This document shows, one piece after another, positions 1-33,377 of a DNA stretch of 64,000 bases. Where the stretch lies: contig JAAVHF010000050.1 in NCBI GenBank assembly GCA_014799845.1, forward strand, positions 1,935-65,934. Reading direction: 5' to 3'. The stretch's first letter is position 1; each line of letters begins with the position of its first letter. This DNA is from Oscillibacter sp. Its GTDB lineage: Bacteria > Bacillota > Clostridia > Oscillospirales > Oscillospiraceae. The notes under the pieces are model-generated. The model did no database searches and was not told the origin of the DNA. It saw only the letters and a list, made by a program, of their open reading frames with translations. The position numbers and the translations under genes were made by a program.

Positions 1-1
1 T

Positions 2-1780
2 ATGATACGAAATTACTTTGAGCCGGAGCTGGACGGGGAATACAGCGATTTCCTCGGGGTGCGGCTTGCGCGGATTTCCATTGGGGCGCGCTATGTGGGG
101 GCAATCCATGAGCTGTGGAACTGCCCCGGTGATGTCTACGGGTTGGAGCGAACCATCCTGCACCACGACGGGTATGTGGCTGCAATCAAGTCGCAGCGGA
201 AAAAAATAGACCGAAATATGAAACCGCTGCGGGAGAAGCTGATGCAATATCCCGAAGACATGAAAACTCTCCTGCAATGCATTGAAAGCGCACAGGGCGA
301 TTCCTCCTATGAGGGGTATATCCGGCAGGCGGCGGCAGTTGTAGAGAAGAAGCCTCCTCAATGGGAGTATTATGGACCGCCGATTCTGCGGTATGCCGTT
401 CTTCATGCCGCAGGATACCATTTGCCTGAGTTGGAGCAGTGGAGCTCCGAAATGCTGGAGTGGTTCCCGGATTCCATCTATACCAGTATCGACGCAGCAT
501 ACGCGCTTTTTGCTGACCACGCGGGAAAGCAGGAGTATTCCCAGGCAATCGAGATGGGAGAACGATATCTGAGCGCCCTGTCGGATTACCAAAAAGGGCA
601 GTTTGACTACAAATCTCTGATTTTCAGTTCCCTGGCCATGTCCACTCAATCCCGGGAGAACGCTGCCCGGGCCATCTTGGCGGACGCCTACTTCCATGAG
701 GGCCAGCCCGACAAAGCCCGGGAGATGCTGCTGACAATTGACCGCGCCAGGATTCGTCCCGAGGCGGTGCAAAACTATATTGGGATCATGATGAACATCC
801 ATGCCAAGGGCGAAGTGGACATGTCCCCCATTTTGGCGGATTTCTGGGAGAAGACCGAGCGGCCGGAGCTGCAAAAAAAGCAGGGCGAGGCACGCCGGAA
901 GGCTGTGGTGGCTGCTGCCGCGGCTGCCTTTACCCAGGATTACCGCAAGGCGGAGGATGAGAGCGGCTCCCGCCATGCCTACACGCTGTTCCTGCCCCTG
1001 GCAGAGAAGAGCGGTTTGGGTACCGCCGCCGCGATCCTGGAGACCGGCGACCGGCAGGAGATGGAGCGGCTGCTGCGGACCGTGGACGACTGGACGGAGC
1101 TGCCTGTTGCCGCGCTGGAGCGGGCCCTGTTGGCCGGAGTGGTTTTCCCCTTGCCGGACCGGCCGTTGACGCTGGAAGAAATGGATAACCTGGCGGCACG
1201 GCTGGCGCAGAACGGGAGCTATCTGCCGGAATTTCTGGACAAGGCTGTCCAGACACTGGACGAGGAGCCTCAATCCCTGGCCTGGGCCAGGGGGCTGGCG
1301 CTGGCCGCCCTGCGCAGCGAAGACTGGGAAGCGGACGGGGACGGCATGACGGCCATCAGGACATTTGCCATAATAGAGCGTGCGTTCCTGTCCCGGTATT
1401 ACGCCCCGGCAATGCTCTGCGGAGAGAATATCTGCCTGCTGCCGCCAATGCACCGTTTCGGCTGGTACTGCGCACGGGCGTTTGATACTTTGGATGCGGG
1501 AGACACGGCGGGCTACGTGCGCCTGCTGCGGGAGGGGCTGGCCCAATGCGAAAATATGAAGCCCGTAGTAGAATTTTTGCTGAAACAGCTGGAGGAGAGC
1601 CACAAGGTCCAGGCCACGCCGGAGCTGCTGCGTCTGGCGGAACAGGTGCGGGCCCTGCTGGCTATGTATCCGGCCGATGACCCGGCGGTAAAGGCGTTGA
1701 AACAGAGCGACGCCTATCAAAAGGTGGCGCATTTGATTGAAGGCCCGGATCTGGGCGTATTGGGAGGTCTGCCGCAATGA
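2..1780 (+). CDS. C-terminal part of a glycosyltransferase (GT2-like) fused to a long TPR-like helical-repeat region; the 5' end is outside the window
   Basis: The frame is open from the window edge. The first residues (VRLARISIGARYVGAIHELW) resemble the end of a GT2 catalytic domain as seen in TPR-containing glycosyltransferases. The remainder is Ala/Leu-rich helical repeats. The stop overlaps the next start (ATGA at 1777-1780). Confidence 0.55.
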   Translation: MIRNYFEPELDGEYSDFLGVRLARISIGARYVGAIHELWNCPGDVYGLERTILHHDGYVAAIKSQRKKIDRNMKPLREKLMQYPEDMKTLLQCIESAQGDSSYEGYIRQAAAVVEKKPPQWEYYGPPILRYAVLHAAGYHLPELEQWSSEMLEWFPDSIYTSIDAAYALFADHAGKQEYSQAIEMGERYLSALSDYQKGQFDYKSLIFSSLAMSTQSRENAARAILADAYFHEGQPDKAREMLLTIDRARIRPEAVQNYIGIMMNIHAKGEVDMSPILADFWEKTERPELQKKQGEARRKAVVAAAAAAFTQDYRKAEDESGSRHAYTLFLPLAEKSGLGTAAAILETGDRQEMERLLRTVDDWTELPVAALERALLAGVVFPLPDRPLTLEEMDNLAARLAQNGSYLPEFLDKAVQTLDEEPQSLAWARGLALAALRSEDWEADGDGMTAIRTFAIIERAFLSRYYAPAMLCGENICLLPPMHRFGWYCARAFDTLDAGDTAGYVRLLREGLAQCENMKPVVEFLLKQLEESHKVQATPELLRLAEQVRALLAMYPADDPAVKALKQSDAYQKVAHLIEGPDLGVLGGLPQ

Positions 1781-2568
1781 AAGTTGTTATCCTGGCCGGC
1801 GGTCTGGGCACTCGCATCAGCGAAGAGAGCCATTTGAAACCAAAACCCATGATTACGATTGGCGACCAACCGATTTTGTGGCACATCATGAAATATTATT
1901 CCAGCTTCGGATTTCATGATTTTATCATCTGCTGCGGTTACAAGGGGCACGTCATCAAGGAATATTTTGCGGATTATTACCTGTACCGGTCCGATGTAAC
2001 CTTTGATTTTTCCGCGGATAACCGCATGACGGTCCATCAGAATGTCGCGGAACCCTGGCGGGTGACTCTGGTAGATACCGGCCTGAATACACAAACCGGA
2101 GCGCGGGTAAAACGTGTTCAGAAGTACATCGGACAGGAAGCCTTTATGCTCACATATGGCGACGGTGTAAGCGATGTAGATTTGAATGCTTTGCTGGAGC
2201 AGCACAGGAAATCCGGCAAGACGGTTACCCTCACGGGCATCCAGCCCGGCGGACGTTTTGGCGTACTGGATCTGGAAGGCCAGACCGTCACCGGGTTCCG
2301 TGAGAAGGCAAAAGAAGACGGTGGCTGGATCAACGGCGGTTTTATGGTGATGGAACCCGGCGTGTTTGACTACCTCAGCACGGAAGAAAGCTGCGTGATG
2401 GAGCAAGAGCCGATGAAAGCGCTGGCACATAACGGGGAGCTGGGCATCTACAAGCACACCGGTTTCTGGCAGTGCATGGATACCCAGCGGGACCGCAGCC
2501 AGCTGGAAGCAATATGGAACAGGGGCCGCGCACCGTGGGCGCCCTGGCTGGAGGGAGGAGCAGAATGA
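1777..2568 (+). CDS. rfbF: glucose-1-phosphate cytidylyltransferase (CDP-glucose synthase)
   Basis: It aligns end to end by eye with Salmonella RfbF: MKVVILAGGLGTRISEE..KPKPM..PILWHIMK.Y...G..DFIICCGYKG..IKEYF, GGFMV, GFWQCMDT.RD. The length of 263 aa is typical. Confidence 0.9.
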   Translation: MKVVILAGGLGTRISEESHLKPKPMITIGDQPILWHIMKYYSSFGFHDFIICCGYKGHVIKEYFADYYLYRSDVTFDFSADNRMTVHQNVAEPWRVTLVDTGLNTQTGARVKRVQKYIGQEAFMLTYGDGVSDVDLNALLEQHRKSGKTVTLTGIQPGGRFGVLDLEGQTVTGFREKAKEDGGWINGGFMVMEPGVFDYLSTEESCVMEQEPMKALAHNGELGIYKHTGFWQCMDTQRDRSQLEAIWNRGRAPWAPWLEGGAE

Positions 2569-3677
2569 ACACATTTCAGCTTTTGCGGGCAAAGACCCTG
2601 GATTTACGTCTGACGCGTCCCTTAACGCCTGAAAGGCAGCAGAACAGTACGGAAAACCAGGAAGAGGCTCTGGCAGGGAAGCAGATTTTAAGTACTATGC
2701 CCCGCCGTTTTGTCTTTGAATTGACCAACGCCTGCAATTTGAGATGCAAAATGTGCGGCCGCAATTCTGCGGATTTTCAGCCCACCTGGTTTCAGATGGA
2801 CTGGCTGAAATATTTCGAGCCCGCGGCACACCTTGTAGAAGAGGTAACCCTGATGGGATGGGGAGAACCCACCGTTCATCCCCATTTCGCGGAATTTCTG
2901 AGCTGGGCTTACCGCCTGGGACTGCGGAAATATTTCTGTACCAACGGAATGCGGCTGGACAAGCTCTTCGATGATATTTTCAGCACAGAGACCGACATTA
3001 TTGCGGTGAGTATGGATGGCGCCTGTGCCGAGACGAACGAGGAGATTCGCCGTGGAGCGGATTTCCACAAAATCCTTCAGAATATCTCCGCTATTACCGA
3101 GTACAAAGCCACACACGGTTCGCAGTTCCCGTACATGAACTTTGTCTTTACCGCCATGGAGCAAAATCTGGGTGAGCTTCCTGAGCTGGTGCGTCTGGCG
3201 GGAGAGATTGGGCTGGATGAAGTAAAGGTCGTTTATCTCACCGCTTTTGACGAGGCGATGGCCGCTGACGTTCTTTATGATAAGATGGCCCGGACGCGGG
3301 ATGTATTTCAGGCCGCGATCGAAGTTGGTAAAGCGCAAAATGTGTCTTTGAAGCTTCCCCACCTGGTAGGGGAAGACCCTGCCGGCACACAGTGCCACAA
3401 AGACTGCTATACCGCATGGAGAGACTTTTTCATTGGGTCTGACGGATATGTCCGGCCATGTATGTCCACGGCGGAAAAGCTGTTCCCAATCAGCAAATAC
3501 GACACTTTTGCCGAAATGTGGAACGCGGCGGAATATCAGCAGCACCGGAGCGCAGTCAACGCAGATAAAATGGCGCTGGCCTGCCGGAATTGCTATCAGT
3601 CTTCTTACGCAAACTGGAACAAAAGGGAGTCCTTTTTGCAGATCGGAAAACAGTTCTCACCTGAGTGGAAAAAGTAA
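2565..3677 (+). CDS. radical SAM enzyme with a C-terminal SPASM/twitch-like Cys cluster; function unknown
   Basis: It has the CxxxCxxC motif (NACNLRCKMCG) and GWGEP. C-terminal cysteines are CHKDC...GSDGYVRPC...CRNCY. The chosen start is ATG 2565 (MNTFQ), which overlaps the rfbF stop as ATGA. The longer track ORF from 2472 lies inside rfbF. Confidence 0.8.
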   Translation: MNTFQLLRAKTLDLRLTRPLTPERQQNSTENQEEALAGKQILSTMPRRFVFELTNACNLRCKMCGRNSADFQPTWFQMDWLKYFEPAAHLVEEVTLMGWGEPTVHPHFAEFLSWAYRLGLRKYFCTNGMRLDKLFDDIFSTETDIIAVSMDGACAETNEEIRRGADFHKILQNISAITEYKATHGSQFPYMNFVFTAMEQNLGELPELVRLAGEIGLDEVKVVYLTAFDEAMAADVLYDKMARTRDVFQAAIEVGKAQNVSLKLPHLVGEDPAGTQCHKDCYTAWRDFFIGSDGYVRPCMSTAEKLFPISKYDTFAEMWNAAEYQQHRSAVNADKMALACRNCYQSSYANWNKRESFLQIGKQFSPEWKK

Positions 3678-3713
3678 ATACTATATCAATGCACACAAAG
3701 AGGACCTTGGCTT

Positions 3714-4745
3714 ATGATTTATCAGCTTGCTATCAATCCGCCTGAAAAGCTTCAAAACTATGCGGTATTGTACATTCAGATGGATAACGGCCCGCTGGAC
3801 GGATTCCCGGTTTTGTCCATTGATCAGAACAGCTACATTGTACACGCAGACATACAAAGCGGGATCGATATTCGTTACGCTCAAGGCTGTCATTGCATTG
3901 CTATCGGCAAAGGCTGCTCGCTGGCGGATGATATTACGTTCATTATCGATATTAATCATGACTACAAATCTGTTGTACAGGGTACGCCTGCATTCTTGGA
4001 TACTGTGGAACGCATTGAAAAAATTTCCCGAAAAGGCACCGTCATCATCCAGAACGATGTTTGGGTCGGTCATGGGGCGACAATCATGGCGGGCGTCACA
4101 TTGCATAACGGATGTGTTGTCGCAGCACAGGCAGTGGTCACAAAAGATGTTCCTCCTTATGCCATCGTAGGCGGAAATCCTGCAAAAATTCTGCGTTATC
4201 GCTTTGACCAGGAAGTTATTGCCGGGCTGCAGAAAATTGCATGGTGGGATTGGCCGGAACACCTGCAAAGAAAATACCGAATGGATTTTGTATTACCGGC
4301 AGAAGAATTTGTAAAGAAACATCTTCCACATGAAGATGAAATTTCTGATGTCAAATCTTCCGGCCTGTTTACGGATGAAGAAAAGAATATTGTGTTTTTT
4401 CCGGCAGATGTCGGAGATCCCTTTCCGCTGTATCCGAAAATTTTAACGGCATATTTTAAGAAAGACCGGCCAGGCACAGAGCTGATCATCTATTTGCCGG
4501 AAGATCTTTCCAGTCAGAGGAATATTGAAGCAATTGAAAGAATTCTGGAAAAATATGAATCACGGGACAGTTATGTTACATTTCAGGCCGGTATTACGAT
4601 GGACGAAGAGATGCTTTTCCGCGAGGCAGATTTCTATGTTACTACACGCAGCCAAAACACCGTTCATCGCACCTGCCTTGCTGACCGCTATGGAGTAAAA
4701 ATCCTTTATGGAACGGACTCTGGTGTATTTCCGGATGAACTATGA
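3714..4745 (+). CDS. hexapeptide-repeat (left-handed beta-helix) acyltransferase of the xenobiotic-acetyltransferase (Vat/CatB-like) class, with a C-terminal extension of about 150 aa of unknown function
   Basis: Motifs: DINHDYKSV and IIQNDVWVGHGATIMAGVTLHNGCVVAAQAVVTKDVPPYAIVGGNPAKILRYRF..WWDWP. It is a paralog of 11833-12903 over both the LbH domain and the extension. Confidence 0.7.
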   Translation: MIYQLAINPPEKLQNYAVLYIQMDNGPLDGFPVLSIDQNSYIVHADIQSGIDIRYAQGCHCIAIGKGCSLADDITFIIDINHDYKSVVQGTPAFLDTVERIEKISRKGTVIIQNDVWVGHGATIMAGVTLHNGCVVAAQAVVTKDVPPYAIVGGNPAKILRYRFDQEVIAGLQKIAWWDWPEHLQRKYRMDFVLPAEEFVKKHLPHEDEISDVKSSGLFTDEEKNIVFFPADVGDPFPLYPKILTAYFKKDRPGTELIIYLPEDLSSQRNIEAIERILEKYESRDSYVTFQAGITMDEEMLFREADFYVTTRSQNTVHRTCLADRYGVKILYGTDSGVFPDEL

Positions 4746-4794
4746 CAGGAAATGTCTGATTAGCATACAAACCAAATGGACAGGGGACTAATCT

Positions 4795-6648
4795 ATGAAC
4801 CAGACGCATATGGAACTTATTTCACGCATATTTGAGCTGTTTGATACCGGCGAAGAAGCAATTCAGTTTTTGGATGCACAGGGGCTGGACGGAGGGCAGT
4901 TCCTTCTGCCCGATCTGGAAGCGTTATGTACGTCGATCGCCTCCGCTATTGAGAAGCTCGCTCCGCAAATAAGCCTGAAGAACAAACTGCATGAGATCGG
5001 CCTGAACGCGCCGCCGACTGTTGCCCGGATCTGCCAGGCTTTGGGCGCCCGGGAGACCGGGTCTGCTGAGATGCACTACAGATGCTCCTTTGTTCCGCTG
5101 TTCCGGTTTTGGCGGCGGTATGCGGAGTTTTTCCTGGTTCATGCGGTTGACGAAACATCTCTGCGCAGCTGGTACAGAGAAGAATTTGAGCTATTCCGGC
5201 AAATCCGCGAAACTCCTAAGCAGGATGAAGACAGAGAATATCGGTACGATTTCTCTATTGTCGTGCTGTTTTATGGCAATCAGAAAATGACAAAGGACTG
5301 TCTTGACGCGATTGAAACCTATACGCGGGGGCATAGCTACGAACTGATTACCTTTGACAATGGGAGTGATCCGGAAACTACCGCGTGGTGTGAATCGCTG
5401 CCTCATGTGAAGAAAATATATTATCCGCACAACATGGGGTCTTCTGCTGCGGGAAACATGATTTTCACGATGGCCTCCAGCTACATGGAAGGAAAATATC
5501 TGCTCTATGTCAGCAATGATGTGATTGTTACGCCGAGATACGCGGATATCCTTTACCGGTGCATGGAGAGCGACGCGCGGATCGCCGTGGCAGTACCTCT
5601 CTGCAACTCGGCCAGCAATCTGCAGGCAATTCCTGTTCCGTACGCCCCCAATGATATGGAGGCGATGCAGGAATTTGCTGAAAATTTTAATCAGTGCAAT
5701 CCTCAGAAATGGGCTGACCGGGCTCGTTTGTTCTCCATTCTGGCGAGTATGCGGCCGCAGGCGCTGGAGCAGATGCAGCTTGCCATTGACCCCTTTTTCT
5801 GTTACGACATGTTCGCTGACGATGATTTCTGCTGCGCATTGCGCCGGATGGGATATCGTCAGGTTCTATGCACCGACGCGTTTGTCCATCATTACGGCTC
5901 TGCCACCATTAAAGAGAGCCAGTTCCAGGTTATGCATTTGGGACGGGAGCAGTTCTATCAGAAATATGGTGTAGACGCATGGAATTCCCTGGGGACCGAG
6001 CTGTGTGCCGCAATCAATACCATTTCGTTTCATCAGCCGGGTCTTCTCCGCATTCTTGCTATCAATCCTTTGTTCGGGGAAAGCGTACTGGCCCTGTGTA
6101 ACCGGCTGCGTGAATGCGGATGTGACAGTATAGCAGTCGATGCGCTGACAGAAGATAACCGCTATCTGGATGATATGGAGGCGCTTTTTCAGCGGAGCGG
6201 ACTGCTGCAGGACGAAAATCAGGCGGCAGAAGGCCGGTATGATATTATTCTTGTAGGAACCGATCTGGATCGCTGCCGCGATTTGCGGGCAGTCATTCAT
6301 GCTGCGGCCAAATATTTGAGGTATGGCGGCATATTCATCACACAGCACAAGAATCATACTAATTTTCTGACCTTATATAACTTTTTGCAGGGCAATGCGA
6401 TGGAAAACGATATTTTTGCCCATGATTCACAGGAGAATCCCGGGATTGTCTCAATTCCTGACGGTGCGCTGGAATTGCTTATGAGCCAGTCCGGACTGAA
6501 GCCGAAACAGGCCATCCGGGTGACCAACAGCTCATGGAAACCCAACATAGAGCAAATCCTCAATGTGTTCAATATTGAAAACCGCGAGAAGGCTGAGCAG
6601 CTTCTGCTGACCTCGGATACATTCTGTATTTGGGAGAAAGGCCGCTGA
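4795..6648 (+). CDS. multidomain glycosyltransferase family 2 protein: unknown N-terminal region of about 150 aa, a GT2 core, and a C-terminal Rossmann/methyltransferase-like region
   Basis: The GT2 signature is FSIVVLFYGNQKMTKDCLDAIETYT..YELITFDNGSDPET. The C-terminal part (RILAINP..., YDIILVGTDLD, YLRYGGIFI) resembles a class I SAM-methyltransferase fold. Confidence 0.7.
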   Translation: MNQTHMELISRIFELFDTGEEAIQFLDAQGLDGGQFLLPDLEALCTSIASAIEKLAPQISLKNKLHEIGLNAPPTVARICQALGARETGSAEMHYRCSFVPLFRFWRRYAEFFLVHAVDETSLRSWYREEFELFRQIRETPKQDEDREYRYDFSIVVLFYGNQKMTKDCLDAIETYTRGHSYELITFDNGSDPETTAWCESLPHVKKIYYPHNMGSSAAGNMIFTMASSYMEGKYLLYVSNDVIVTPRYADILYRCMESDARIAVAVPLCNSASNLQAIPVPYAPNDMEAMQEFAENFNQCNPQKWADRARLFSILASMRPQALEQMQLAIDPFFCYDMFADDDFCCALRRMGYRQVLCTDAFVHHYGSATIKESQFQVMHLGREQFYQKYGVDAWNSLGTELCAAINTISFHQPGLLRILAINPLFGESVLALCNRLRECGCDSIAVDALTEDNRYLDDMEALFQRSGLLQDENQAAEGRYDIILVGTDLDRCRDLRAVIHAAAKYLRYGGIFITQHKNHTNFLTLYNFLQGNAMENDIFAHDSQENPGIVSIPDGALELLMSQSGLKPKQAIRVTNSSWKPNIEQILNVFNIENREKAEQLLLTSDTFCIWEKGR

Positions 6649-6671
6649 AGAAATGGAGGTATCCAGCTGTG

Positions 6672-11815: not shown

Positions 11816-11832
11816 GGCAGAAAGGATATATT

Positions 11833-12903: not shown

Positions 12904-12910
12904 GAGGAAA

Positions 12911-13095
12911 ATGAATCCCATATTGGAGTCGGATTTTAAAAATTGCTTAGGCCATGGGAAGAGCTGAAGGACAAGCGCCTGTTAGGATATTCAATTGATG
13001 TCGCAGAAAAACTGGTGAAGGAAAATTTTTTGGAACAATTCCAATTACGGCGTCATTATATCCGGACAAAGCTGTTTCACAGATTAAGATACTGA
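12911..13095 (+). pseudogene. internally deleted, frameshifted remnant of an SDR epimerase/reductase gene (paralog of 14438-15448)
   Basis: MNPILESDFK... then, in another frame, ..PWEELKDKRLLG parallels MNPVLDLDFK...LPWSELKGTKILLTG of the intact gene at 14438. A short stretch (YSIDVAEKLVKE) resembles the C-terminal YTILELAQKIAG region. The reading frame is broken by stops. Confidence 0.45.
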
Positions 13096-13146
13096 ACAGG
13101 CTCTAAAAAGTGGGGTTGGCGTACAAGTATATAAAAATGTAATGAT

Positions 13147-13233
13147 GCTGACGATGCGGGCGGAATATATCGTCTGCCTGCGGTCTTATATGCGCCATCT
13201 GTCGTTTTTGCTTTATGGGATGGTGCGGTGTAA
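13147..13233 (+). pseudogene. orphan duplicate of the last ~85 nt of the FkbM methyltransferase gene (compare 11733-11815)
   Basis: gctgacgatgcgggcggaatatatcgtctgcctgcggtcttatatgcgccatctgtcgtttttgctttatgggatggtg closely matches gctgatgatgcgggcggggtataccgtctgcttgcggtcttatatgcatcatctgtcgtttgtgttttatggaatggtg. There is no upstream coding body. Confidence 0.6.
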
Positions 13234-13268
13234 TGGAATAATCTTCAAGAAGGGAAGAAAATGCAGTT

Positions 13269-14441
13269 ATGTCTACTGTCTTAGAGCTGTTAGCTGAAAT
13301 TTCGAAGGAACAGTCGGCGCGCTCAGAAAAAAAGCTTGTTCTGGAGAAAAAGTTTGAGGCTTACGGTAAGGAGATTGTTATATATGGTCATGGAAATTTA
13401 GGCTGTGAATTGTGTAAAGGGCTGGAGAACGCAAACTGGACTGTTCAATATTTCCTCGATGCCAATCAGCCGACAGATTTAAATAGAAAAAATGTGAACC
13501 TGAAGGACGCGGCTAAATATCTGACCCCGGACGCGTTGATTATAGTAGCAATCTATAATGTTTATTTGGAATATTCATCTATACAACGTCAGCTGCAATC
13601 CATGGGATTCCAAAATATTCTCAGCGTCCTTGATTTGCGCGTGTGGCCCGAGCTGTTTCAGACAGGGCATATTCATGGCACGCTCAGCTGGGATATTTCC
13701 CATATCCCGGCTGAACCGGTATGTGAGGCGTACTCTCTCATGGAGGACTCCCTCTCTCAAAAGACATTTTTAGAATTGCTTCGGTTTTTTATTTCTGACA
13801 ATGAGCCAACGCTCACTCTTTGTCCGGCAGAAATGCAGTACATGCCAGCATTGACATACCTGCCTATAGCGGAGGAACGCATTATTGATTGCGGCGCATA
13901 TAATGGAGACACTATGCGGGCTTTCTACTCGGAAACAGCAAACTGGAGTTCATACATTGCGATAGAACCGGATCCGCAGAACATGGAGAAATTGGCGGCA
14001 TCCATTCAAGCAGACTTGCCCGAAGCTCTTGCAAAGCGGACAAAAACAATTTGCGCGGCAGTATCTGATGTGTCCGGCAGCATCACCTTTTGTACAAAGG
14101 GGAACGCCGCCAGTCATATAACAGAAGAAGCGGTTGATCAAATCTCACGTGTCCCGGTTATAAGCCTGGATGAGGTCATTCAGGAACCTGTGTCACTGAT
14201 TAAGATGGATATAGAAGGCTTTGAACTCCGCGCCTTGCAAGGCGCGGAGAGGCTGATTCGCGCGAATCAGCCTCTCCTGGCGATTTGTGGTTACCACCGG
14301 CAGTCGGATCTCTGGGAGATTCCATTATATATGAAAAAAGTTTTGCCGAACCATCGCATTTACCTGCGGAACTATATTGGGATTATTGAGTATGTCTTTT
14401 ATGCTGTTCCGGAAAATCGTGTTATAAGTGAGAAACAATGA
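13269..14441 (+). CDS. FkbM-family methyltransferase (second copy, divergent)
   Basis: Motifs: IIDCGAYNGDT and IKMDIEGFELRALQGA. It has the same two-domain layout as 10622-11815. The region is AT-richer. Confidence 0.7.
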   Translation: MSTVLELLAEISKEQSARSEKKLVLEKKFEAYGKEIVIYGHGNLGCELCKGLENANWTVQYFLDANQPTDLNRKNVNLKDAAKYLTPDALIIVAIYNVYLEYSSIQRQLQSMGFQNILSVLDLRVWPELFQTGHIHGTLSWDISHIPAEPVCEAYSLMEDSLSQKTFLELLRFFISDNEPTLTLCPAEMQYMPALTYLPIAEERIIDCGAYNGDTMRAFYSETANWSSYIAIEPDPQNMEKLAASIQADLPEALAKRTKTICAAVSDVSGSITFCTKGNAASHITEEAVDQISRVPVISLDEVIQEPVSLIKMDIEGFELRALQGAERLIRANQPLLAICGYHRQSDLWEIPLYMKKVLPNHRIYLRNYIGIIEYVFYAVPENRVISEKQ

Positions 14442-15448
14442 ATCCTGTACTCGACTTAGATTTTAAAGAAATCGAACAGCTGCCCCTTCCATGGAGTGAA
14501 TTGAAAGGGACTAAAATTCTACTTACTGGCGCTACAGGTTTTATTTGCAAATACCTTGTTGAGATGCTCGCCAGGGTAAGTATTGAGAAAAATCTTGAAA
14601 TGGAGTTTTGGCTTTTCCGACGGCGCGGCGCACCAGAAAGTCTGCAATGTTCAAACGTACACTGGATTGCGGGAGATATTACGGAAGCGTTTCTGCCTGA
14701 GGATTTCAGGCCCAATATAATTATCCATGCTGCCAGTCCCGCTAATACAAAAGCACATATTTGCGATCCCGTCGGCCTGTCGCAAACAAATATTTTAGCT
14801 ACGCGTTACTTGCTGGAGTGCGCCCGGAAACATGGAGCCACCTTTGTCTATTTTAGCAGCGCCGCGGTTTACTTGAATCAGTCCGGAACCTTCTCGGAAG
14901 TAAGCCCGGGTGAACTAGTAAAAAGCAATGCAACATTCTCGCTGTACGGGGCAAGCAAGCTGGCGGGTGAACTGCTCTGCGAAGATTATCGCCGGAATTT
15001 TGGCGTGGATTGCCGTATTATTCGTCCATTTAGTATTCATGGTCCAGGTGAATCTCTAGACAGTGGGCGTTATTTTCCAGATTTTCTTCGTCAAGCTCTA
15101 AGGGATAAAGAGATTACCGTAACAGGAACAGGAACCCCAGTGAGGGATTCCTGCTATCTTATGGATTTTGTAAGTGGATTGCTATATGTTTTGCTAAAGG
15201 GTAATAGCACGGCTTACAATATCGGAAACGAAGACAATGTCTACACAATTTTGGAACTAGCCCAGAAGATTGCGGGACAAAGCGGAAGTTTAAACGTTAT
15301 TGGGCCATTGTCCTTAACAGATCATACATCTGGCGACTTTTTTGTTTCAGATACCGCAAAGCTGCGGCAATTGGGTTGGAAACCACAGGTAGATCTGCCG
15401 GCCTGTATCCAACGGTGCCTGGACAGCTACCGTTATGCTGGTTCGTGA
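14438..15448 (+). CDS. NAD(P)-dependent extended SDR (sugar epimerase / 4-ketoreductase type)
   Basis: Motifs: LLTGATGFICKYLV (GxxGxxG) and YGASKLAGE (YxxxK). It is ATGA-coupled to the upstream gene. Confidence 0.75.
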   Translation: MNPVLDLDFKEIEQLPLPWSELKGTKILLTGATGFICKYLVEMLARVSIEKNLEMEFWLFRRRGAPESLQCSNVHWIAGDITEAFLPEDFRPNIIIHAASPANTKAHICDPVGLSQTNILATRYLLECARKHGATFVYFSSAAVYLNQSGTFSEVSPGELVKSNATFSLYGASKLAGELLCEDYRRNFGVDCRIIRPFSIHGPGESLDSGRYFPDFLRQALRDKEITVTGTGTPVRDSCYLMDFVSGLLYVLLKGNSTAYNIGNEDNVYTILELAQKIAGQSGSLNVIGPLSLTDHTSGDFFVSDTAKLRQLGWKPQVDLPACIQRCLDSYRYAGS

Positions 15449-15533
15449 ACGAGATGGATGCCAGAAATGTGATGCGGCAGCCATTAAACAGTGAATATGC
15501 TGAAAAACCCTTGGTGTTAGGAGGTATAGTCTG

Positions 15534-16664
15534 ATGGTAAACCAGAGAAAAAAGATTCCCCTTGCAGGGCCATTTATTACGCAAAAAGAAATCGACTATG
15601 TGCATGACGCCGTTGTAACCGGCTGGTATGAAACCTATGACAAACACATCCGTCAATTGGAGCAGGCTTTTGCGGACTATGTAGGCGCGAAGTACGCCAT
15701 TGCAACATACTGTGGAACCCATGCGCTTCATTTGGCGGCGTTAGCCTTACAATTAGGTCCGGAAGATGAAGTTATTGTCGCAGATCAGAGCTATATCGCT
15801 ACGGCACACGCCTTATCCTACGCAGGCGCAAAATGCGTATTTGCGGATGTTCTGCCAGATACTCTCTGCATTGACCCCCGGCAAATTGAAGCGCTGGTTA
15901 CACCAAAGACAAAAGCCATCATGGTAGTCCATTTCGGCGGTTTTACCTGCGACATGGATGCAGTTATGAATATTGCTAGAAAACACCGGCTGGCGGTTAT
16001 TGAAGACGCATGCCAGGCAGTGGGAACATTTTACCGGGGAATGCACGCGGGAACTATTGGCGATATTGGTACATTCAGTTTCCAGGGGGCTAAAATCGCT
16101 GTAGGCGGTGAGGGCGGTATGCTCGTCACCAACAGCGAGGAACTGTATCAGCGAGCCAAACACTATGGAACCTTTTGCAGAAATGATGCGATCCAGTATC
16201 TCTGGTCAGACGATATTGGTTACAACTACCGCATATCCAACATCACAGCTGCTTTGATTCTGGCACAAATCGAACGAATAGATGAATTGGTGGCAAATAA
16301 GAAACGCATTTTTGAAAGCTATAAGAAAAAACTTGCGAACAATCCGTATTTTGAAATGCTGCTTCCCCCTGTAGATTGCCGGCCAAACTACGGTTATGTG
16401 CTGGGATATTTGCGGGATGAGGTGAATATAGACCGCGATGCTTTTGTAAAGAGGATGCTGGATCTGAACATCCACTTCCGCCCAGGCTATCCCGCCATGC
16501 ACCGAATGCCGCCGTACGGGCAGACGCACGCGCTGCCAAACTCAGACCGCTATGACAGACGGGGCCTTGTTTTGCCAACCGCGCACTCTTTGACAGAAGA
16601 AGATATCGCCGTTGTCTGTGATACGCTCAATCGGTCAATCGAAATTTTAATGGAGGGCAAGTAA
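15534..16664 (+). CDS. DegT/DnrJ/EryC1/StrS-family PLP-dependent sugar aminotransferase
   Basis: Family layout: KEIDYV.DAV.TGW, GTHALHLA, and FSFQGAKIAVGGEGGML with the Schiff-base Lys retained. That Lys argues against an E1/ColD-type dehydrase. Confidence 0.85.
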   Translation: MVNQRKKIPLAGPFITQKEIDYVHDAVVTGWYETYDKHIRQLEQAFADYVGAKYAIATYCGTHALHLAALALQLGPEDEVIVADQSYIATAHALSYAGAKCVFADVLPDTLCIDPRQIEALVTPKTKAIMVVHFGGFTCDMDAVMNIARKHRLAVIEDACQAVGTFYRGMHAGTIGDIGTFSFQGAKIAVGGEGGMLVTNSEELYQRAKHYGTFCRNDAIQYLWSDDIGYNYRISNITAALILAQIERIDELVANKKRIFESYKKKLANNPYFEMLLPPVDCRPNYGYVLGYLRDEVNIDRDAFVKRMLDLNIHFRPGYPAMHRMPPYGQTHALPNSDRYDRRGLVLPTAHSLTEEDIAVVCDTLNRSIEILMEGK

Positions 16665-16665
16665 C

Positions 16666-17448
16666 ATGAGCAATCGCTTTGCCGCATTCCTTGCCGGTGA
16701 ACTCGGTATATCTGTACTGGAATTGTTTTATAAAGAAAAAGAGGCATTGCGCCTTGCAGTTCTGGACGAGGCAGACTTTCATGGCCAAAATGGCGAAATG
16801 TTACGGATGCTGGATGACTTTCCGGAAACAAAGATCATCTATTGGAAGGAATTAAAAGAGCAGGAGGGCCTTGCGGCATTTGCAAGTATGTCCATAGATT
16901 TAGGAATACTTGTCTCATGGGGCCATAAGATTGAAAGCCCACTGCTTCATTTGACGAAATATGGATATTTAAACGGGCATCCAAGCTTTTTGCCCTACTG
17001 TAAAGGCAAGCATCCCCATTTCTGGTGTATCCAGGATGCTACACCCTGTGGCGGCACGCTTCATCTGATTGATGAAAATCTTGATACCGGTCCGATTGCC
17101 TGGCAAAAAGAAGTTCAGACTGATTGGACTGATACGGGATCAAGCCTATATGACAAGTCATGGAAGGCCGTTCACGACCTGTTCGTGGAAAATTGGGACG
17201 CTATCTTGGCGCTCAAGATTCCAAGCCACCAGAGCAGCGGCCTGGGTAAGTACCATTTTGCATATGAATTAGGGGAATTTACGCGCATAAATCTGGAAGA
17301 AAAATATACCGCCCGTGAATTACTGAATCTCATCCGCGGCAGAACGTTTTATCCGCATCCCGCAGCGTACTTTTCCGATGAAAACGGCACGTATGAAGTC
17401 AGAGTTACCATCACAAAGAAGAATGATGATACGCCAAATCTCACATAA
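16666..17448 (+). CDS. formyltransferase-fold protein (candidate sugar N-formyltransferase)
   Basis: LNGHPSFLPYCKGKHP (the Asn/His of the formyl-transfer motif) and LHLIDENLDTGPI (the catalytic Asp region) are present. It lies 2 nt after the aminotransferase. Confidence 0.6.
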   Translation: MSNRFAAFLAGELGISVLELFYKEKEALRLAVLDEADFHGQNGEMLRMLDDFPETKIIYWKELKEQEGLAAFASMSIDLGILVSWGHKIESPLLHLTKYGYLNGHPSFLPYCKGKHPHFWCIQDATPCGGTLHLIDENLDTGPIAWQKEVQTDWTDTGSSLYDKSWKAVHDLFVENWDAILALKIPSHQSSGLGKYHFAYELGEFTRINLEEKYTARELLNLIRGRTFYPHPAAYFSDENGTYEVRVTITKKNDDTPNLT

Positions 17449-17460
17449 AAGGATCGTACT

Positions 17461-19185
17461 ATGACTGTCTCTGAATATATTTTTGATTTTCTGCAAAAGA
17501 AGGGCTGTGACACCGTCTACATGGTTTCCGGCAGTTCCGCCATGTGGCTGACGGATGCTCTCAAACGCAGCAAAGACCTGCAAGCCATCTGCTGCCATCA
17601 CGAGCAGGCGGCAGCGATGGCAGCGGACTGTTATGGCAGGACTCGCGGTATTCCCGGTGTGTGTCTTGCCACCATTGGCCCGGGGGCTACCAATGCCATC
17701 ACGGGTGTGGCCGGGGCGTTTGTGGATTCGTCCCCTATGTTTGTACTGACCGGACAGGCCAATTCCCGGCTGATACGCTATGAAATGGATACCGGTATCC
17801 GGCAGCATGGGACACAGAGCATAAATCTGGAACAGATCGTATCCCCGTTGGTAAAATATTTTGCCTGCGTACTGGACCCGGCGGATATCCGGCAGGTCAT
17901 GGAGCATGCATGGTATGAGGCCATGGAGGGGCGGCAGGGCCCCGTCTGGATCGATGTCCCGGTGGATATCCAAAACAGGCAGATCCCGGCGGAAATGGAT
18001 GGATACCATCCTCCTTACAGAGGATCGTCAGCGGAGGATCTCCAGGCTGTGGCCCAGCGCCTTGCTCAGGCGCAGAAGCCGCTGATCCTGGCCGGAGGCG
18101 GTGTGCGAAGCGCCGGAGCGGTCCAATTGCTGAAGCAGCTATGTCAGGCATTGCAGATACCTGTCGCGGCATCCCGGGGCGGCATCGATGTGATTGCATC
18201 GGATTCCCCTTATTTTGTGGGCCGTCCGGGCAGTTATGGCGACCGTGCGTCACATTTTGCTGTTCAGCAGTGTGACTGCCTGTTGATTCTGGGATGCCGG
18301 TTGTCCATTTCCACCACGGGATATTACCCGCAGCGTTTTGGGCAGAACGCATACAAAATTATGGTGGATATCGACCGGAAAGAACTGGACAAGCCGGATG
18401 TTCCCGTGGATTTGAAGCTGCACATGGATTTGAAGCAGTGTCTGGAGCAGCTTTATAAATGTTGTGCAGAGCTGGCTCCGGCAGACCATTCGGAGTGGCT
18501 GACCCATTGCAGGGAGATGCGGCTCCGGTATCCCAATGTTCTGCCGGGCTATCAGCAGGAGCATCCTCTGAACAGCTATTACTTTACGAAGCTGCTCTCG
18601 CAATGCGCCCCGGCGGAATGCGATATTGTAGTGGATACGGGCAGCGTTTGCAATATTGTCTCTCAGAGTTGGGACCTCAAAGAGGGGCAGCGCTACCTGA
18701 TTTCCGGCGGCCTGTCCGCCATGGGGTTCTGGGCGGGGGCGATCGGTGCGGCCCGACAGGGACGGCAGGTTCTTGCCTTGTCCGGCGATGGCAGTGTACA
18801 GATGAACGTACAGGAATTTGCCACACTGCGGTATAACCATCTGCCTGTCAAATTGTTTGTGTTCCAGAATAACGGCTATATGCTCATTCGCCATAATCAG
18901 CACAACTATATGAACGACCGCTTTTTAGGGGTAGGTCCTGACAGTGGTTTGGAAACGCCGGATTTCTGCAAGGTTGCGGCAGCATATGGTCTGGATAGCT
19001 GTGAACTCACGGCTGACAGCCATCTGGAAGACGCAATCCGGGATATTCTGAGACGGGACGGACCGGTTGTGTGTCAGGTCCGGGTTCAGGAATTTGGGGA
19101 AATTGCGCCCAGGATCGCTTCAAGAGTCATGCCGGATGGATCGCTGAAAGCAGCGGAATTTGACGATCTGTATCCGTTTTTGTGA
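17461..19185 (+). CDS. thiamine-diphosphate enzyme of the acetolactate-synthase/YerE-like family
   Basis: The N-terminal Pyr domain has HEQAAAMAADCYGR and GPGATNAITGVA. The C-terminal PP domain has GGLSAMGFWAGAIGA...LSGDGSVQMNVQE. The length is 574 aa. Confidence 0.8.
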   Translation: MTVSEYIFDFLQKKGCDTVYMVSGSSAMWLTDALKRSKDLQAICCHHEQAAAMAADCYGRTRGIPGVCLATIGPGATNAITGVAGAFVDSSPMFVLTGQANSRLIRYEMDTGIRQHGTQSINLEQIVSPLVKYFACVLDPADIRQVMEHAWYEAMEGRQGPVWIDVPVDIQNRQIPAEMDGYHPPYRGSSAEDLQAVAQRLAQAQKPLILAGGGVRSAGAVQLLKQLCQALQIPVAASRGGIDVIASDSPYFVGRPGSYGDRASHFAVQQCDCLLILGCRLSISTTGYYPQRFGQNAYKIMVDIDRKELDKPDVPVDLKLHMDLKQCLEQLYKCCAELAPADHSEWLTHCREMRLRYPNVLPGYQQEHPLNSYYFTKLLSQCAPAECDIVVDTGSVCNIVSQSWDLKEGQRYLISGGLSAMGFWAGAIGAARQGRQVLALSGDGSVQMNVQEFATLRYNHLPVKLFVFQNNGYMLIRHNQHNYMNDRFLGVGPDSGLETPDFCKVAAAYGLDSCELTADSHLEDAIRDILRRDGPVVCQVRVQEFGEIAPRIASRVMPDGSLKAAEFDDLYPFL

Positions 19186-19282
19186 GGAATTATCCCCTGA
19201 TACCGTCAAAAAGGGCTTGGGTGCAGACATGCTTCTTCGATAAAGGGAACGAGGAACAATATTTACCCGTCCGCTTTCCGGT

Positions 19283-21661: not shown

Positions 21662-21953
21662 AGCACAAGCCTCCTATTAAGAATACTTTCTGACAATCGT
21701 GCTTTCCTTCCCGCAGGGTGCACAGCCGCAATCATTCAAATGCATCATCAGCCCGGAGATCATGTATTCTCCCTGCGCTGGCGGGGGATACCGGTATCCA
21801 TAAAGAAAAGGGGCGGACATGCGCGGAAGTCGAACTCCGTGCCATTTTTCAGCTTTACATGGAACCAAGGCCGCACGTCTACTCCCGCCCAGTTGACGTA
21901 ATCCCGGGTCGGTTCGCCGGAGAGCCGGAGCAGGCTCACGACCCGCGGTTTTT

Positions 21954-24776: not shown

Positions 24777-24928
24777 ATTTTTGTTCCTCCTGAATCGAAA
24801 ATGATAGTTGGAAGTTGTTCCTATTCAAACGGACCGGGCCGGCCCGGAATTGACAAATTTATATCATCGAGAATCAATCCTCATGCAAGTTGGGGAAAAC
24901 GGTTTTAAGCTGTATTGGTTCTTTTACG

Positions 24929-33367: not shown

Positions 33368-33377
33368 GGTATTCCAC

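Follow-up and report, generated by a model that had tools for sequence, protein, structure and literature searches.

Gene content of the locus

The window analysed here is a stretch of 64,000 nucleotides from Oscillibacter sp., and its first 19 kb (positions 2-19185) hold 16 open reading frames, all co-directional on the plus strand. The seven 4-nt ATGA overlaps listed in a preliminary description of the locus (at 1777, 2565, 7727, 8884, 9696, 10622 and 14438) are all real, and profile searches upheld the domain assignments made there across the 16-gene block. For genes other than RfbF and RfbG, we infer functions from homology and context.

RfbF, a glucose-1-phosphate cytidylyltransferase (1777-2568), and RfbG, a CDP-glucose 4,6-dehydratase (6672-7730), both exceed the cutoffs of their equivalog models (TIGR02623, 399.4 bits vs 300.25, and TIGR02622, 321.6 bits vs 278.45, respectively). 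The likely true RfbG start at 6672 was taken from the gene call on the metagenome contig L001. These scores agree with the earlier reading of an entry via CDP-glucose and CDP-4-keto-6-deoxy-D-glucose. RfbF is 85-92% identical in Oscillospiraceae islands. In line with the earlier description, the E1/E3 3-dehydrase system is missing from the island, as neither E1 (RfbH) nor E3 was found there.

RfbG is followed by a Glf-like flavin pyranose/furanose mutase (7727-8887; GLF and NAD_binding_8 matches). It reaches 288.6 bits on TIGR00031, just under the cutoff of 303.75, and its top PDB match is the D. radiodurans UGM (216 bits). Such Glf-like mutases form a tight subfamily with 63-93% identity, compared with about 40% for ordinary UGMs, and are missing from the Lachnospiraceae cassette.

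The right-hand part of the island carries an extended SDR (14438-15448; Epimerase family, 140 bits; top PDB match UDP-glucuronate decarboxylase, 108 bits), probably a ketoreductase in a YerF-like or 4-ketoreductase role. Next to it lies a variable module, a putative DegT-family PLP sugar aminotransferase (15534-16664; DegT_DnrJ_EryC1, 344 bits), in which the Schiff-base lysine described earlier as retained is present in FSFQGAKIAVGGEGG. The DegT protein was also considered as RfbH/E1 and rejected, with 168 bits on RfbH vs a cutoff of 423. Among the locus types, the SDR occurs alone in 9, DegT alone in at least four and both in two. The predicted sugar N-formyltransferase (16666-17448; Formyl_trans_N and N_formyltrans_C) has PDB matches that include the sugar N-formyltransferases 4nv1, 6v33, VioF and Rv3404c. 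It gave zero tblastn matches in related loci and thus belongs, among the loci sampled, to this organism only.

Additionally, the island encodes two hexapeptide acyltransferases and two FkbM methyltransferases. XAT1 (3714-4745; Hexapep match, Vat/CatB-like, with a C-terminal extension) scores 116 bits on the Vat family, which is under the cutoff, and XAT2 (11833-12903, 11833 being the likely true start; Hexapep) is likewise Vat/CatB-like under cutoff. A Kyte-Doolittle value of 1.73 is reached solely if XAT2 is extended at its 5′ end, which is unlikely. FkbM1 (10622-11815; Methyltransf_21 at residues 227-378) belongs to the conserved core and carries an extra N-terminal domain of about 220 aa and of unknown type; every Oscillospiraceae island has it at 74-79% identity, and the Aminipila and Lachnospiraceae versions are 45% identical. 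FkbM2 (13269-14441; Methyltransf_21) and both XAT genes are variable modules, each occurring in only a subset of related loci.

Between XAT2 and FkbM2 lies a non-coding gap (12904-13268) made of gene remnants. Positions 13147-13225 repeat the 3′ end of FkbM1 (11734-11812) at 87% identity; similarity to the SDR start is seen at 12910-12940, and to a 3′ part of FkbM2 at 13069-13090. The gap thus looks like a scar of cassette recombination.

Flanking genes and glycosyltransferases

At the left edge, positions 2-1780 encode the last 592 aa of a GT2 protein of 708 aa. Its gene begins 346 nt before the left end of the window, so that most of the GT2 domain falls outside it. Contig L001, which is 100% identical over the 1 kb aligned, extends the window leftwards and holds the whole gene (2772-4898). 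The top PDB match of its N-terminal domain, and thus its closest solved relative, is the Listeria flagellin O-glycosyltransferase GmaR (22ao, E 5.5e-19), followed by the peptide S-glycosyltransferases ThuS and SunS. This suggests a flagellin O-glycosyltransferase. Of the "TPR-bearing GT2" described previously, the GT2 part stands, and the helical region matches a TPR profile weakly (TPR_19, E 0.0075). The second glycosyltransferase, a 617-aa GT2 (4795-6648; Glycos_transf_2 at residues 154-271), has GalT1 as its top PDB match (5hea, E 1e-7), an N-terminal region of no recognised family and a weakly methyltransferase-like C-terminal region (Methyltransf_23, E 0.015). It is found in all islands at 60-65% identity.

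The upstream extension that the preliminary description had called for revealed, in order, a flagellin gene (Flagellin_C, E 1.9e-26), a gene for the flagellin lysine-methylase FliB (NF038110, 177.5 bits vs cutoff 85) and the GT2 N-terminus; there are no wzx, wzy or priming-GT genes in this part of L001. The downstream flank is a fructan/sugar utilisation locus with GH32, PfkB, ABC sugar-uptake and LacI genes, unrelated to the island.

The same arrangement recurs elsewhere. Homologues of the 708-aa GT2 (41-48% identity) adjoin flagellin genes in related loci, and in all 12 of the 12 related loci with a readable flank the flagellin gene lies next to the large GT2 gene. These loci (L004, L006/7, L008, L010, L013, L027, L028, L031, L035, L038 and L023) come from two families, namely uncultured Oscillospiraceae and one Aminipila MAG (L023). 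Because of this constant adjacency, we consider the region an island for the O-glycosylation of flagellin in the cytoplasm, transcribed downstream of fliC and fliB in an uncultured gut Oscillibacter, and not a polysaccharide locus (probability about 0.8). The earlier suggestion of protein glycosylation, with flagellin among the targets, thus gains support from the upstream flagellin and FliB genes, the GmaR-like GT2 and the recurrent adjacency.

A cell-wall, capsule or S-layer glycan pathway, with priming, flippase and polymerase genes elsewhere in the genome and a merely coincidental proximity to flagellin, seems very unlikely. O-antigen or capsule loci are the classical home of CDP-hexose genes, and the Lachnospiraceae cassette (L024/25) comes with a Glyphos_transf-like gene and lacks flagellin within 10 kb. 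However, such a pathway is at odds with the 12 flagellin-adjacent loci, with the kinship of the large GT2 to protein and peptide glycosyltransferases such as GmaR and SunS, and with the flanks, which hold flagellin and FliB upstream and sugar catabolism genes downstream. It also fits poorly with the absence of membrane-type proteins (0 of 16). A hydropathy scan found no 19-residue segment with the hydropathy of a membrane helix in the 16 proteins (Kyte-Doolittle maximum 1.6), and Pfam gave zero matches to a priming transferase, Wzx, Wzy or ABC exporter within the island. Both agree with the original statement that the 19 kb lack integral-membrane, priming, Wzx/Wzy and ABC exporter genes.

A conserved core of enzymes

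Related versions of the island are common in gut Clostridia. The core kept across three Clostridia families consists of RfbF, RfbG, the radical SAM enzyme, the split transketolase, the ThDP carboligase, FkbM and the large GT2, whereas the acetyltransferases, the second methyltransferase and the SDR vs DegT plus N-acyltransferase modules are swapped between strains. The best-conserved proteins are RfbF, the radical SAM enzyme, TK-N, TK-C, the ThDP enzyme and FkbM1, with 74-92% identity within Oscillospiraceae and 45-69% to the Aminipila and Lachnospiraceae cassettes.

The radical SAM enzyme (2565-3677) had been described as a radical SAM/SPASM protein. It does match Pfam Radical_SAM and SPASM, but instead of the full 7-Cys SPASM motif it has a 4-Cys twitch-like auxiliary motif; the invariant cysteines are C57/C61/C64 plus C281, C299, C340 and C343. 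A Foldseek search with its AF2 model (pLDDT 92.7) placed BlsE, SkfB, SuiB and DesII on top, all of them generic matches at TM-scores near 0.6. In five cassette arrangements (this island, L016, L017, L023 and L024) the gene adjoins an RfbF-like gene or lies at most one gene away, and in L014 it comes after an NTP-transferase/HAD fusion gene. Its homologues at 52-57% identity adjoin a nucleotidyltransferase gene, RfbF-like or other, or are separated from it by at most one gene. The operons of L014, L016, L017 and L018 hold enzymes that require keto sugars (RmlC-like epimerases, TylC3-type C-methyltransferases and DegT) and no recognisable 4,6-dehydratase. This suggests that the enzyme acts on a CDP-sugar.

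The transketolase-like enzyme is split into TK-N (8884-9699; Transketolase_N, the PP-domain subunit) and TK-C (9696-10625; Transket_pyr/Transketolase_C, the Pyr and C domains). Their top PDB matches are the N chain of the Carboxydothermus split transketolase (6yak, 220 bits) and 6yaj (169 bits), respectively. TK-N retains the GDG...N ThDP motif and is 85-90% identical across islands. In TK-C, the acceptor-pocket motif is GVGGGFAYGPAGPTHH in place of the canonical THxGxxxGEDGxxHQ, as it is in 120 of the 120 closest homologues; where TK-C has GVGGGFAYGxAGPTHH, the bona fide split transketolase 6yaj has THAGLTVGEDGASHQ.

The last gene encodes a ThDP enzyme of the ALS superfamily (17461-19185; three TPP_enzyme domains), with 80-84% identity between islands and 65% between families. 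It scores under every ALS equivalog cutoff, and there is no ALS small subunit among the island ORFs. In the PDB, JanthE (8rph) is its best match at 309 bits, compared with 260 bits for E. coli ALS I. The score against 5ahk, which we take to be PpYerE, is 227 bits and thus below E. coli ALS I, so that the assignment as a YerE-like carboligase rests on JanthE and on context. PMC12188165 describes JanthE as YerE-like. The characterised YerE-type enzymes all use a 3,6-dideoxy-4-keto sugar supplied by E1/E3 (PMC9306805), whereas the island has no E1/E3.

Split-gene transketolases proposed for keto sugars are known so far solely from Streptomyces antibiotic clusters, and their acceptance of ketones has been proposed only, never demonstrated (PMC12247030). 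The miharamycin/amipurimycin or branched-sugar antibiotic clusters of Streptomyces likewise contain split transketolases or YerE-like enzymes, and XAT, FkbM and DegT proteins are frequent tailoring enzymes in these clusters. Even so, it is hardly credible that the island makes a glycosylated small-molecule natural product: no PKS, NRPS, nucleoside core, exporter or resistance gene lies in or beside it, both glycosyltransferases are GT2 with one akin to protein glycosyltransferases, and the flagellin association is constant.

It is also unlikely, if less so, that the flagellin is decorated with conventional sugars only, the TK-like, ALS-like and radical SAM genes supplying precursors or cofactors. 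The products would then be a CDP-6-deoxyhexose, possibly furanose (cf. the Fcf1/Fcf2 dTDP-D-fucofuranose route), a CDP-4-formamido-4,6-dideoxyhexose (cf. VioA/VioF) and UDP-Galf. Textbook pathways to deoxy and amino sugars contain a close functional analogue of each of RfbG, SDR, Glf, DegT and the formyltransferase, and RfbG with SDR and Glf, or DegT with the formyltransferase, could alone yield ordinary sugars. The undemonstrated ketone-accepting transketolase and the ThDP enzyme's 260-bit match with E. coli ALS I point the same way. However, conservation is highest for TK-N, TK-C, the ThDP enzyme and the radical SAM enzyme, which accompany RfbF and RfbG in three families; some island versions, by contrast, do without the SDR, DegT or Glf. 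Moreover, the TK-like acceptor motif is altered throughout the subfamily, and the ThDP enzyme differs from ALS in its model scores and its lack of a small subunit.

Proposed pathway

Most likely, then, the island builds a CDP-activated sugar, as yet undescribed and probably carbon-branched, with which the protein of the flagellar filament is decorated. The end product is likely to differ from the known CDP sugars. Neither the searchable literature nor the cultured genomes of the GTDB set yielded a characterised collinear cluster, which the preliminary description had named as a refuting finding, and an account of this cassette was likewise absent from the searchable literature. The single chemical steps outlined below range from rather doubtful to about an even chance.

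Every reaction would be cytoplasmic and draw directly on nucleotide sugars. RfbF would form CDP-glucose and RfbG CDP-4-keto-6-deoxy-D-glucose. The YerE/JanthE-like ThDP enzyme could then attach an acyl unit to a keto group of the sugar, probably an acetyl unit derived from pyruvate, giving a C-branched tertiary alcohol with no earlier E1/E3 3-deoxygenation. The twitch-type radical SAM enzyme would most likely serve as an anaerobic dehydrogenase that introduces an additional keto group into the CDP-sugar. A keto group such as this may accept a two-carbon unit from the split TK-like enzyme, which lacks the residues holding the sugar phosphate and its 2-OH.

The SDR might reduce a leftover keto group; alternatively, DegT might transaminate it, with N-formylation to follow (N-acetylation in other strains). 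The Glf-like mutase may produce the furanose form of the island sugar or of UDP-galactose. Before export, the GmaR-like 708-aa GT2 would transfer the first sugar to flagellin Ser/Thr, and the 617-aa GT2 would add a second. Finally, the FkbM methyltransferases and XAT acetyltransferases could modify the glycan, and their strain-variable presence would diversify the filament surface.

Gene content of the island and its place behind the flagellin gene

The island (window 2-19185) contains 16 ORFs, every one on the + strand. All seven 4-nt ATGA start/stop overlaps listed in the preliminary description were found, and Pfam and NCBIfam upheld its domain assignments. In addition to the entry enzymes RfbF and RfbG, these searches recognised a Radical_SAM/SPASM protein, two Vat/CatB-like hexapeptide acyltransferases (XAT1 and XAT2), a 617-aa GT2 (GT2-617, 4795-6648), a mutase of the GLF family (Glf), Transketolase_N followed by Transket_pyr/Transketolase_C in two ORFs, two FkbM methyltransferases (FkbM1 and FkbM2), one extended SDR, a DegT aminotransferase with its PLP lysine kept in FSFQGAKIAVGGEGG, a formyltransferase with a sugar-type N_formyltrans_C domain, and a three-domain ThDP enzyme. 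The double name radical SAM/SPASM needs a correction, as the protein carries four invariant downstream cysteines and not the full seven-Cys SPASM motif. The probable true starts of RfbG and XAT2 lie at 6672 and 11833, and the first ORF of the window is the C-terminal 592 aa (2-1780) of a longer protein, referred to below as the large GT2.

RfbF scored 399 bits on TIGR02623 (cutoff 300) and RfbG 322 bits on TIGR02622 (cutoff 278), which places them with RfbF/DdhA and RfbG/DdhB of the CDP-3,6-dideoxyhexose pathway. The mutase stays just under the UGM equivalog cutoff of TIGR00031 (288.6 vs 303.75). E1 and E3 (RfbH/DdhC and RfbI/DdhD), the 3-dehydrase system of that pathway, are missing from the island, in line with the first reading: the sole DegT-family protein reaches 168 bits on RfbH, for which the cutoff is 423, and no ferredoxin-reductase-type ORF is present. 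This low score and the kept PLP lysine rule out that the DegT protein is a disguised E1.

Hydropathy analysis of the 16 ORFs revealed no membrane-helix-grade hydrophobic segment in any island protein. In the same ORFs and in the flanks, Pfam and NCBIfam found no domains of a priming phosphoglycosyltransferase, a flippase or polymerase, or an ABC exporter, so the reported lack of such genes holds for the island. The island does not belong to the polysaccharide loci of Wzx/Wzy or ABC type. Beyond 19185, the opposite strand carries two GH32 genes (one with Laminin_G_3), a PfkB kinase, ABC sugar-uptake permeases, which are the sole ABC genes nearby, and LacI regulators. They form one carbohydrate-utilisation locus (19283-31353), which is followed by a second (32536-41748) with a substrate-binding protein/permease/ATPase set, a HAD phosphatase, a 5'-nucleotidase/LigT fusion, an inositol monophosphatase and a second LacI. 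Neither is related to the island. Further on, an IS110-family transposase ORF (42762-43568; DEDD_Tnp_IS110, E 1.9e-21) sits in a stretch of lower GC (0.48-0.51). No Rfam family reached its gathering score in the whole window. A scan of 1-19600 against shuffled sequence gave 18 promoters vs 18.6 and 23 terminators vs 17.7, which we judged not above shuffled; operon boundaries were not drawn from it.

An exact-sequence look-up traced the window to a MAG in GenBank that bears the label Oscillibacter sp. (117-kb contig, proteins MBD5150029-MBD5150075). To the left, the island could be followed on L001, a metagenome contig found through the exact RfbF protein, which shows 100% identity to the window over the aligned 1 kb and reaches 3.1 kb further. 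Its left end falls inside a flagellin gene (fliC), whose C-terminal 442 aa are encoded (Flagellin_C, E 1.9e-26) and which lies 1.8 kb before the window begins. It is followed, ahead of the large GT2 gene, by a gene for the flagellin lysine-N-methylase FliB (L001 1513-2739, ~1.6 to 0.4 kb left of the window; NF038110, 177.5 bits vs cutoff 85). The contig also supplies the start of the first ORF, which becomes a protein of 708 aa that has a GT2 domain at its N-terminus and lacks a transmembrane segment. The best solved relative of residues 1-196 is the flagellin O-GlcNAc transferase GmaR of Listeria (22ao, E 5.5e-19), followed by the peptide S-glycosyltransferases ThuS and SunS. In all 12 loci in which that flank is readable (the window and 11 further loci), the large GT2 gene has a flagellin gene as its neighbour.

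The preliminary description had allowed that wzx, wzy or priming-GT genes immediately upstream would make this an ordinary polysaccharide locus. The extension instead brought flagellin, FliB and the GT2 N-terminus; with these upstream and sugar-uptake genes downstream, this possibility does not apply. By genomic criteria the island falls into the class of cytoplasmic flagellin O-glycosylation loci, with attachment of the glycan to Ser/Thr being predicted. We put the probability that it is a cytoplasmic flagellin O-glycosylation island at roughly 80%.

Like GmaR-type systems and the flagellin islands of Clostridia (C. difficile, Clostridium Pse/Leg), it combines a soluble GT2 with a C-terminal helical domain beside flagellin and clustered sugar-nucleotide genes, without a lipid carrier, flippase or oligosaccharyltransferase. 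GmaR of Listeria monocytogenes, however, moves plain GlcNAc from UDP-GlcNAc and needs no dedicated sugar pathway. Nonulosonic acids or GlcNAc-phospho-threonine are the products of the Clostridium islands known so far (PMC4441256, PMC13317340), whereas the donor route of the present island would start from CDP-glucose and involve two ThDP enzymes as well as one of the radical SAM family.

As a separate observation, the position of the FliB gene between fliC and the large GT2 gene means that the flagellin of the window organism is possibly both methylated and glycosylated. No FliB homologue was detected by tblastn in the related loci mapped.

A conserved cassette with exchangeable modules

Contexts of members of the Glf-like mutase subfamily in Oscillospiraceae were gathered by looking up the encoding contigs and supplemented with six loci from the GTDB species set and 15 metagenome loci, all of which were mapped by tblastn. 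The six GTDB loci all belong to uncultured Oscillospiraceae MAGs, and an alignment scan of the same species set with GT2-617 found the island in uncultured MAGs only. The island occurs commonly in metagenomes: for one of its TK-C sequences (the C-terminal transketolase-like subunit) the index of the assembly collection lists 292 blocks.

The Oscillospiraceae loci have one architecture in common: flagellin, large GT2, RfbF, radical SAM, [XAT1], GT2-617, RfbG, Glf, TK-N, TK-C, FkbM1, [XAT2] [FkbM2] [SDR and/or DegT + N-acyltransferase], ThDP, where brackets mark modules found in some strains only. Identity to the window proteins is lowest for the large GT2 (41-48%) and intermediate for GT2-617 (60-65%), RfbG (64-69%), Glf (66-73%) and FkbM1 (74-79%). 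It is higher for TK-C (78-82%), ThDP (80-84%), radical SAM (81-83%), TK-N (85-90%) and RfbF (85-92%). In two loci (L011 2657-4767 and L029 2391-4503) an extra ~2.1 kb, matched by no window protein, lies between the large GT2 gene and RfbF.

The cassette also occurs in two further families. An Aminipila MAG (L023) encodes RfbF, XAT, radical SAM, GT2, RfbG, Glf, TK-N/C, FkbM, DegT, ThDP and a large GT2 with faint TPR matches, and has flagellin and an FlhB-like gene as neighbours of the cassette. On a Lachnospiraceae contig (L024/25) the set comprises radical SAM, RfbF, RfbG, TK-N/C, SDR, FkbM, ThDP and the large GT2, without Glf and with no flagellin gene within 10 kb. Core enzymes of both are 45-69% identical to the window proteins. 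Since the same enzymes recur in these two cassettes, the minimal conserved cassette consists of RfbF, RfbG, radical SAM, the split transketolase-like pair, ThDP, FkbM and the large GT2. The Glf-like protein forms a tight, island-bound subfamily (63-93% identity); ordinary UGMs are ~40% identical to it.

Other genes come and go. The SDR without DegT was observed in nine locus types, DegT without the SDR in at least four, and both in the window and L006/7. In the related loci DegT is followed by an N-acyltransferase of ~217 aa, which is GNAT-type in L006 and hexapeptide-type in L023; among the loci sampled, the formyltransferase is present in the window organism only. The alternation of SDR and DegT fits one keto group that is either reduced, or aminated and then N-acylated. 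This group could be the hexose C4 or the carbonyl of an acetyl branch installed by a YerE-type enzyme; reduction and amination are both among the fates of YerE-type branches (PMC9306805).

The routes to N-formylated 4-amino-4,6-dideoxyhexoses (VioA/VioF) share with the island a DegT protein and a formyltransferase with the N_formyltrans_C dimerisation domain, but here this pair is a strain-specific addition outside the conserved core. A 4,6-dehydratase, a reductase and a Glf-type mutase also occur together in the dTDP-D-fucofuranose route of E. coli O52 (Fcf1/Fcf2). Both known routes use dTDP or GDP and serve O-antigens, whereas the nucleotide in the island is predicted to be CDP.

The gap between XAT2 and FkbM2 (365 nt, 12904-13268) is a mosaic of remnants of neighbouring genes. 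In it, the start of the SDR recurs over 31 nt (12910-12940) and a part of FkbM2 over 22 nt (13069-13090), and 13147-13225 is a 79-nt, 87% copy of the 3' end of FkbM1 (11734-11812), a repeat that came to light in the promoter/terminator scan. The gap has the appearance of a scar left by recombination between cassettes. GC content, taken in 2-kb windows, drops to 0.45-0.49 over 4001-6000 and 12001-18000, compared with 0.52-0.58 elsewhere in the island and 0.58 just downstream of it. These low-GC windows contain most of XAT1/GT2-617, XAT2, FkbM2, SDR, DegT and the formyltransferase, which suggests that the modules were horizontally acquired or exchanged between strains. The gene-remnant gap and the drop in GC over most variable modules suggest that cassettes are exchanged, which would be expected where diversifying selection acts on a surface structure.

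Two ThDP enzymes and a radical SAM enzyme

The split transketolase-like pair (TK-N, 8884-9699; TK-C, 9696-10625) has the complete domain set of a canonical transketolase, that is PP, Pyr with the cofactor Glu, and the C domain. TK-N keeps the GDG...N ThDP motif and matches the N chain of the split transketolase from Carboxydothermus with 220 bits, while TK-C contains IAEQ, which holds the Pyr-domain cofactor Glu. The best PDB matches of the two subunits are the two chains of a functional split transketolase.

The acceptor-pocket motif differs: THAGLTVGEDGASHQ of the bona fide split enzyme is replaced by GVGGGFAYGPAGPTHH in TK-C. This type of replacement of the canonical TH...GEDG..HQ was observed in each of the 120 closest homologues, the most distant of which are 54% identical, and the canonical His and Asp positions hold Gly and Ala in a Clostridia-wide transketolase-like subfamily. 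The lost His is presumably the one that binds the substrate phosphate in the E. coli and yeast enzymes, and the lost Asp the one that binds the 2-OH. Given these roles, the replacement of both residues indicates a pocket that is rebuilt, as judged from the alignments. The homologues sampled for context (one of ~80% identity, two of 54-56%) are all in sugar cassettes. Together with the changed motif in the 120 homologues, this rules out a housekeeping transketolase.

For Streptomyces antibiotics, split-gene transketolases that use keto sugars have been put forward, of which none has been characterised (PMC12247030). The miharamycin and amipurimycin clusters resemble the island in having a two-ORF transketolase beside keto-sugar-forming enzymes in a sugar-tailoring cluster. 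They differ in being actinomycete antibiotic clusters with a proposed hydroxyacetyl branching not characterised in vitro, whereas the island pair belongs to the Gly/Ala-pocket subfamily and is linked to CDP-sugars and flagellin.

The second ThDP enzyme (17461-19185) scores under every acetolactate-synthase equivalog cutoff. Its best PDB match is JanthE (8rph, 309 bits), ahead of E. coli acetolactate synthase I (260) and 5ahk (227), which we take to be PpYerE. JanthE is described as a YerE-like carboligase whose substrates are 2-oxo acids and ketones and whose products are tertiary alcohols (PMC12188165). In the making of yersiniose, CDP-3,6-dideoxy-4-keto-glucose receives its acetyl branch from YerE itself, and the characterised YerE-type members all take CDP-3,6-dideoxy-4-keto-D-glucose as acceptor (PMC9306805). 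E1 and E3, which supply this acceptor, are missing from the island, so it could not be made in the known way. The cluster context supports a YerE-like assignment.

With the route to CDP-yersiniose A in Yersinia pseudotuberculosis (DdhA/B/C/D, YerE, YerF) and the related erwiniose and caryophyllose routes, the island shares the entry by a CDP-glucose synthase and a 4,6-dehydratase. It also has a ThDP carboligase of the ALS superfamily, a putative member of the YerE-like group, and its NAD(P)H reductase could fill the role of YerF. In contrast to those routes, it lacks DdhC/DdhD, adds the transketolase-like, radical SAM and mutase enzymes, and is found in a strictly anaerobic Gram-positive host with a protein, not LPS, as the putative target.

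The radical SAM enzyme contains CX3CX2C and, downstream, C281, C299, C340 and C343 in a twitch-like arrangement (C-X17-C...C-X2-C), in place of the seven-Cys SPASM motif for two auxiliary clusters. It scores under all NCBIfam maturase cutoffs, and identity of 52-60% is maintained across phyla. The core motif is common to BtrN (a twitch dehydrogenase), DesII (a TDP-sugar deaminase/dehydrogenase) and BlsE (cytosylglucuronate decarboxylase), but identity to them is 15-20%. The auxiliary motif resembles the single twitch cluster of BtrN.

In five cassette arrangements the radical SAM gene adjoins an RfbF-like cytidylyltransferase gene or is at most one gene away from it. In four operons without transketolase or ThDP genes (L014, L016, L017 and L018) its companions are RmlC-like epimerases, TylC3-type C-methyltransferases and DegT, all of which need a keto-sugar, and no recognisable 4,6-dehydratase was found there. 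In the last three, the homologues (55-57% identity) have RfbF-like or other nucleotidyltransferases as partners. We infer that the enzyme makes a keto function on a nucleotide sugar, most likely as a BtrN-type anaerobic dehydrogenase. The family may represent a general anaerobic route to nucleotide keto-sugars.

The basis of the dehydrogenase idea is genomic context, since the structural neighbours are generic. An AF2 model (pLDDT 92.7) retrieved BlsE, SkfB, SuiB, DesII, PqqE, viperin and anSME in Foldseek, with BtrN not in the top 50; at TM ~0.6 such folds do not settle the reaction type. BlsE and DesII are in the top group. C4 deoxygenation of the DesI/DesII type, by an aminotransferase and a radical SAM enzyme, was rejected, as DegT is missing from most islands and the radical SAM enzyme is invariant. 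DegT varies between strains, so the island has no obligatory DesI-type partner, unlike DesII.

A different flagellin glycosylation island was noticed on L014 (4257-16210), a Lacrimispora saccharolytica-like contig. It looks like a nucleotide-heptose island without a 4,6-dehydratase and reads flagellin, GT2 (faint TPR), GT2, NTP-transferase/HAD, radical SAM (56%), RmlC-like, GHMP kinase, SIS, SDR, FkbM and TylF, followed by fliE/F/G.

A possible pathway and its implications

Glycosylation would take place in the cytoplasm, straight from nucleotide sugars. CDP-glucose would be converted to CDP-4-keto-6-deoxyglucose, after which one or two ThDP-dependent C-C bond formations could occur at keto groups, one provided by RfbG and a further one by the radical SAM enzyme. 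A leftover keto group would be reduced, or aminated and formylated, and ring contraction might follow as an option. The GmaR-like GT2 would transfer the sugar to Ser/Thr of flagellin, GT2-617 would extend the glycan, and O-methylation and O-acetylation would be the final touches. Taken one by one, these chemical steps, proposed from the gene set, range from improbable to an even chance.

A bolder proposal, with the odds against it, is that the cassette of RfbF, RfbG, twitch radical SAM, split transketolase-like and YerE-like ThDP enzymes makes a new class of CDP-sugar. Such a sugar would be chain-extended or doubly C-branched, with >6 carbons, through two ThDP carboligations on keto-sugars, the radical SAM enzyme installing a keto group independently of O2 and NAD. 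It would decorate flagellins of abundant gut commensal Clostridia in a strain-variable manner and influence how the host recognises flagellin. If true, this would be the first transketolase shown to act on a nucleotide keto-sugar acceptor, and the flagellin decoration would be comparable to the nonulosonic acids of other bacteria.

Flagellin could also receive ordinary sugars only, namely a 6-deoxyhexose or its furanose, 4-formamido-4,6-dideoxyhexose and Galf, with the transketolase-like, ThDP and radical SAM enzymes not modifying sugars at all. The pattern of conservation and the rebuilt transketolase pocket speak against this main rival, which we regard as unlikely.

No account of this cassette was found in the searchable literature, in which a minority of subscription journals is covered. 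Related cassettes occur in Oscillospiraceae, Aminipila and Lachnospiraceae, and the finding bears on abundant gut commensals. Innate and antibody responses of the host have a major target in the flagellins of gut Clostridia, and to our knowledge little is known about the modification of commensal flagellins, because the organisms are uncultured. The island indicates three undemonstrated activities: a transketolase-like enzyme on a nucleotide keto-sugar, a YerE-like carboligase without E1/E3 deoxygenation, and a radical SAM enzyme genomically coupled to CDP-sugar synthases in operons without a 4,6-dehydratase. All three are open to direct test with recombinant proteins. The module swaps between strains (SDR vs DegT, formyl vs acetyl, with or without acetyl- and methyltransferases) offer a natural series for tying genes to glycan structure.

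In a mouse-gut relative (L004 17238-21164) the island runs on past the ThDP gene with a 572-aa protein of no known family, an APS kinase, a PEP-mutase/CTP-transferase fusion and a radical SAM/CTP-transferase protein, which hints at an extra decoration of the phosphonate or sulfate type.
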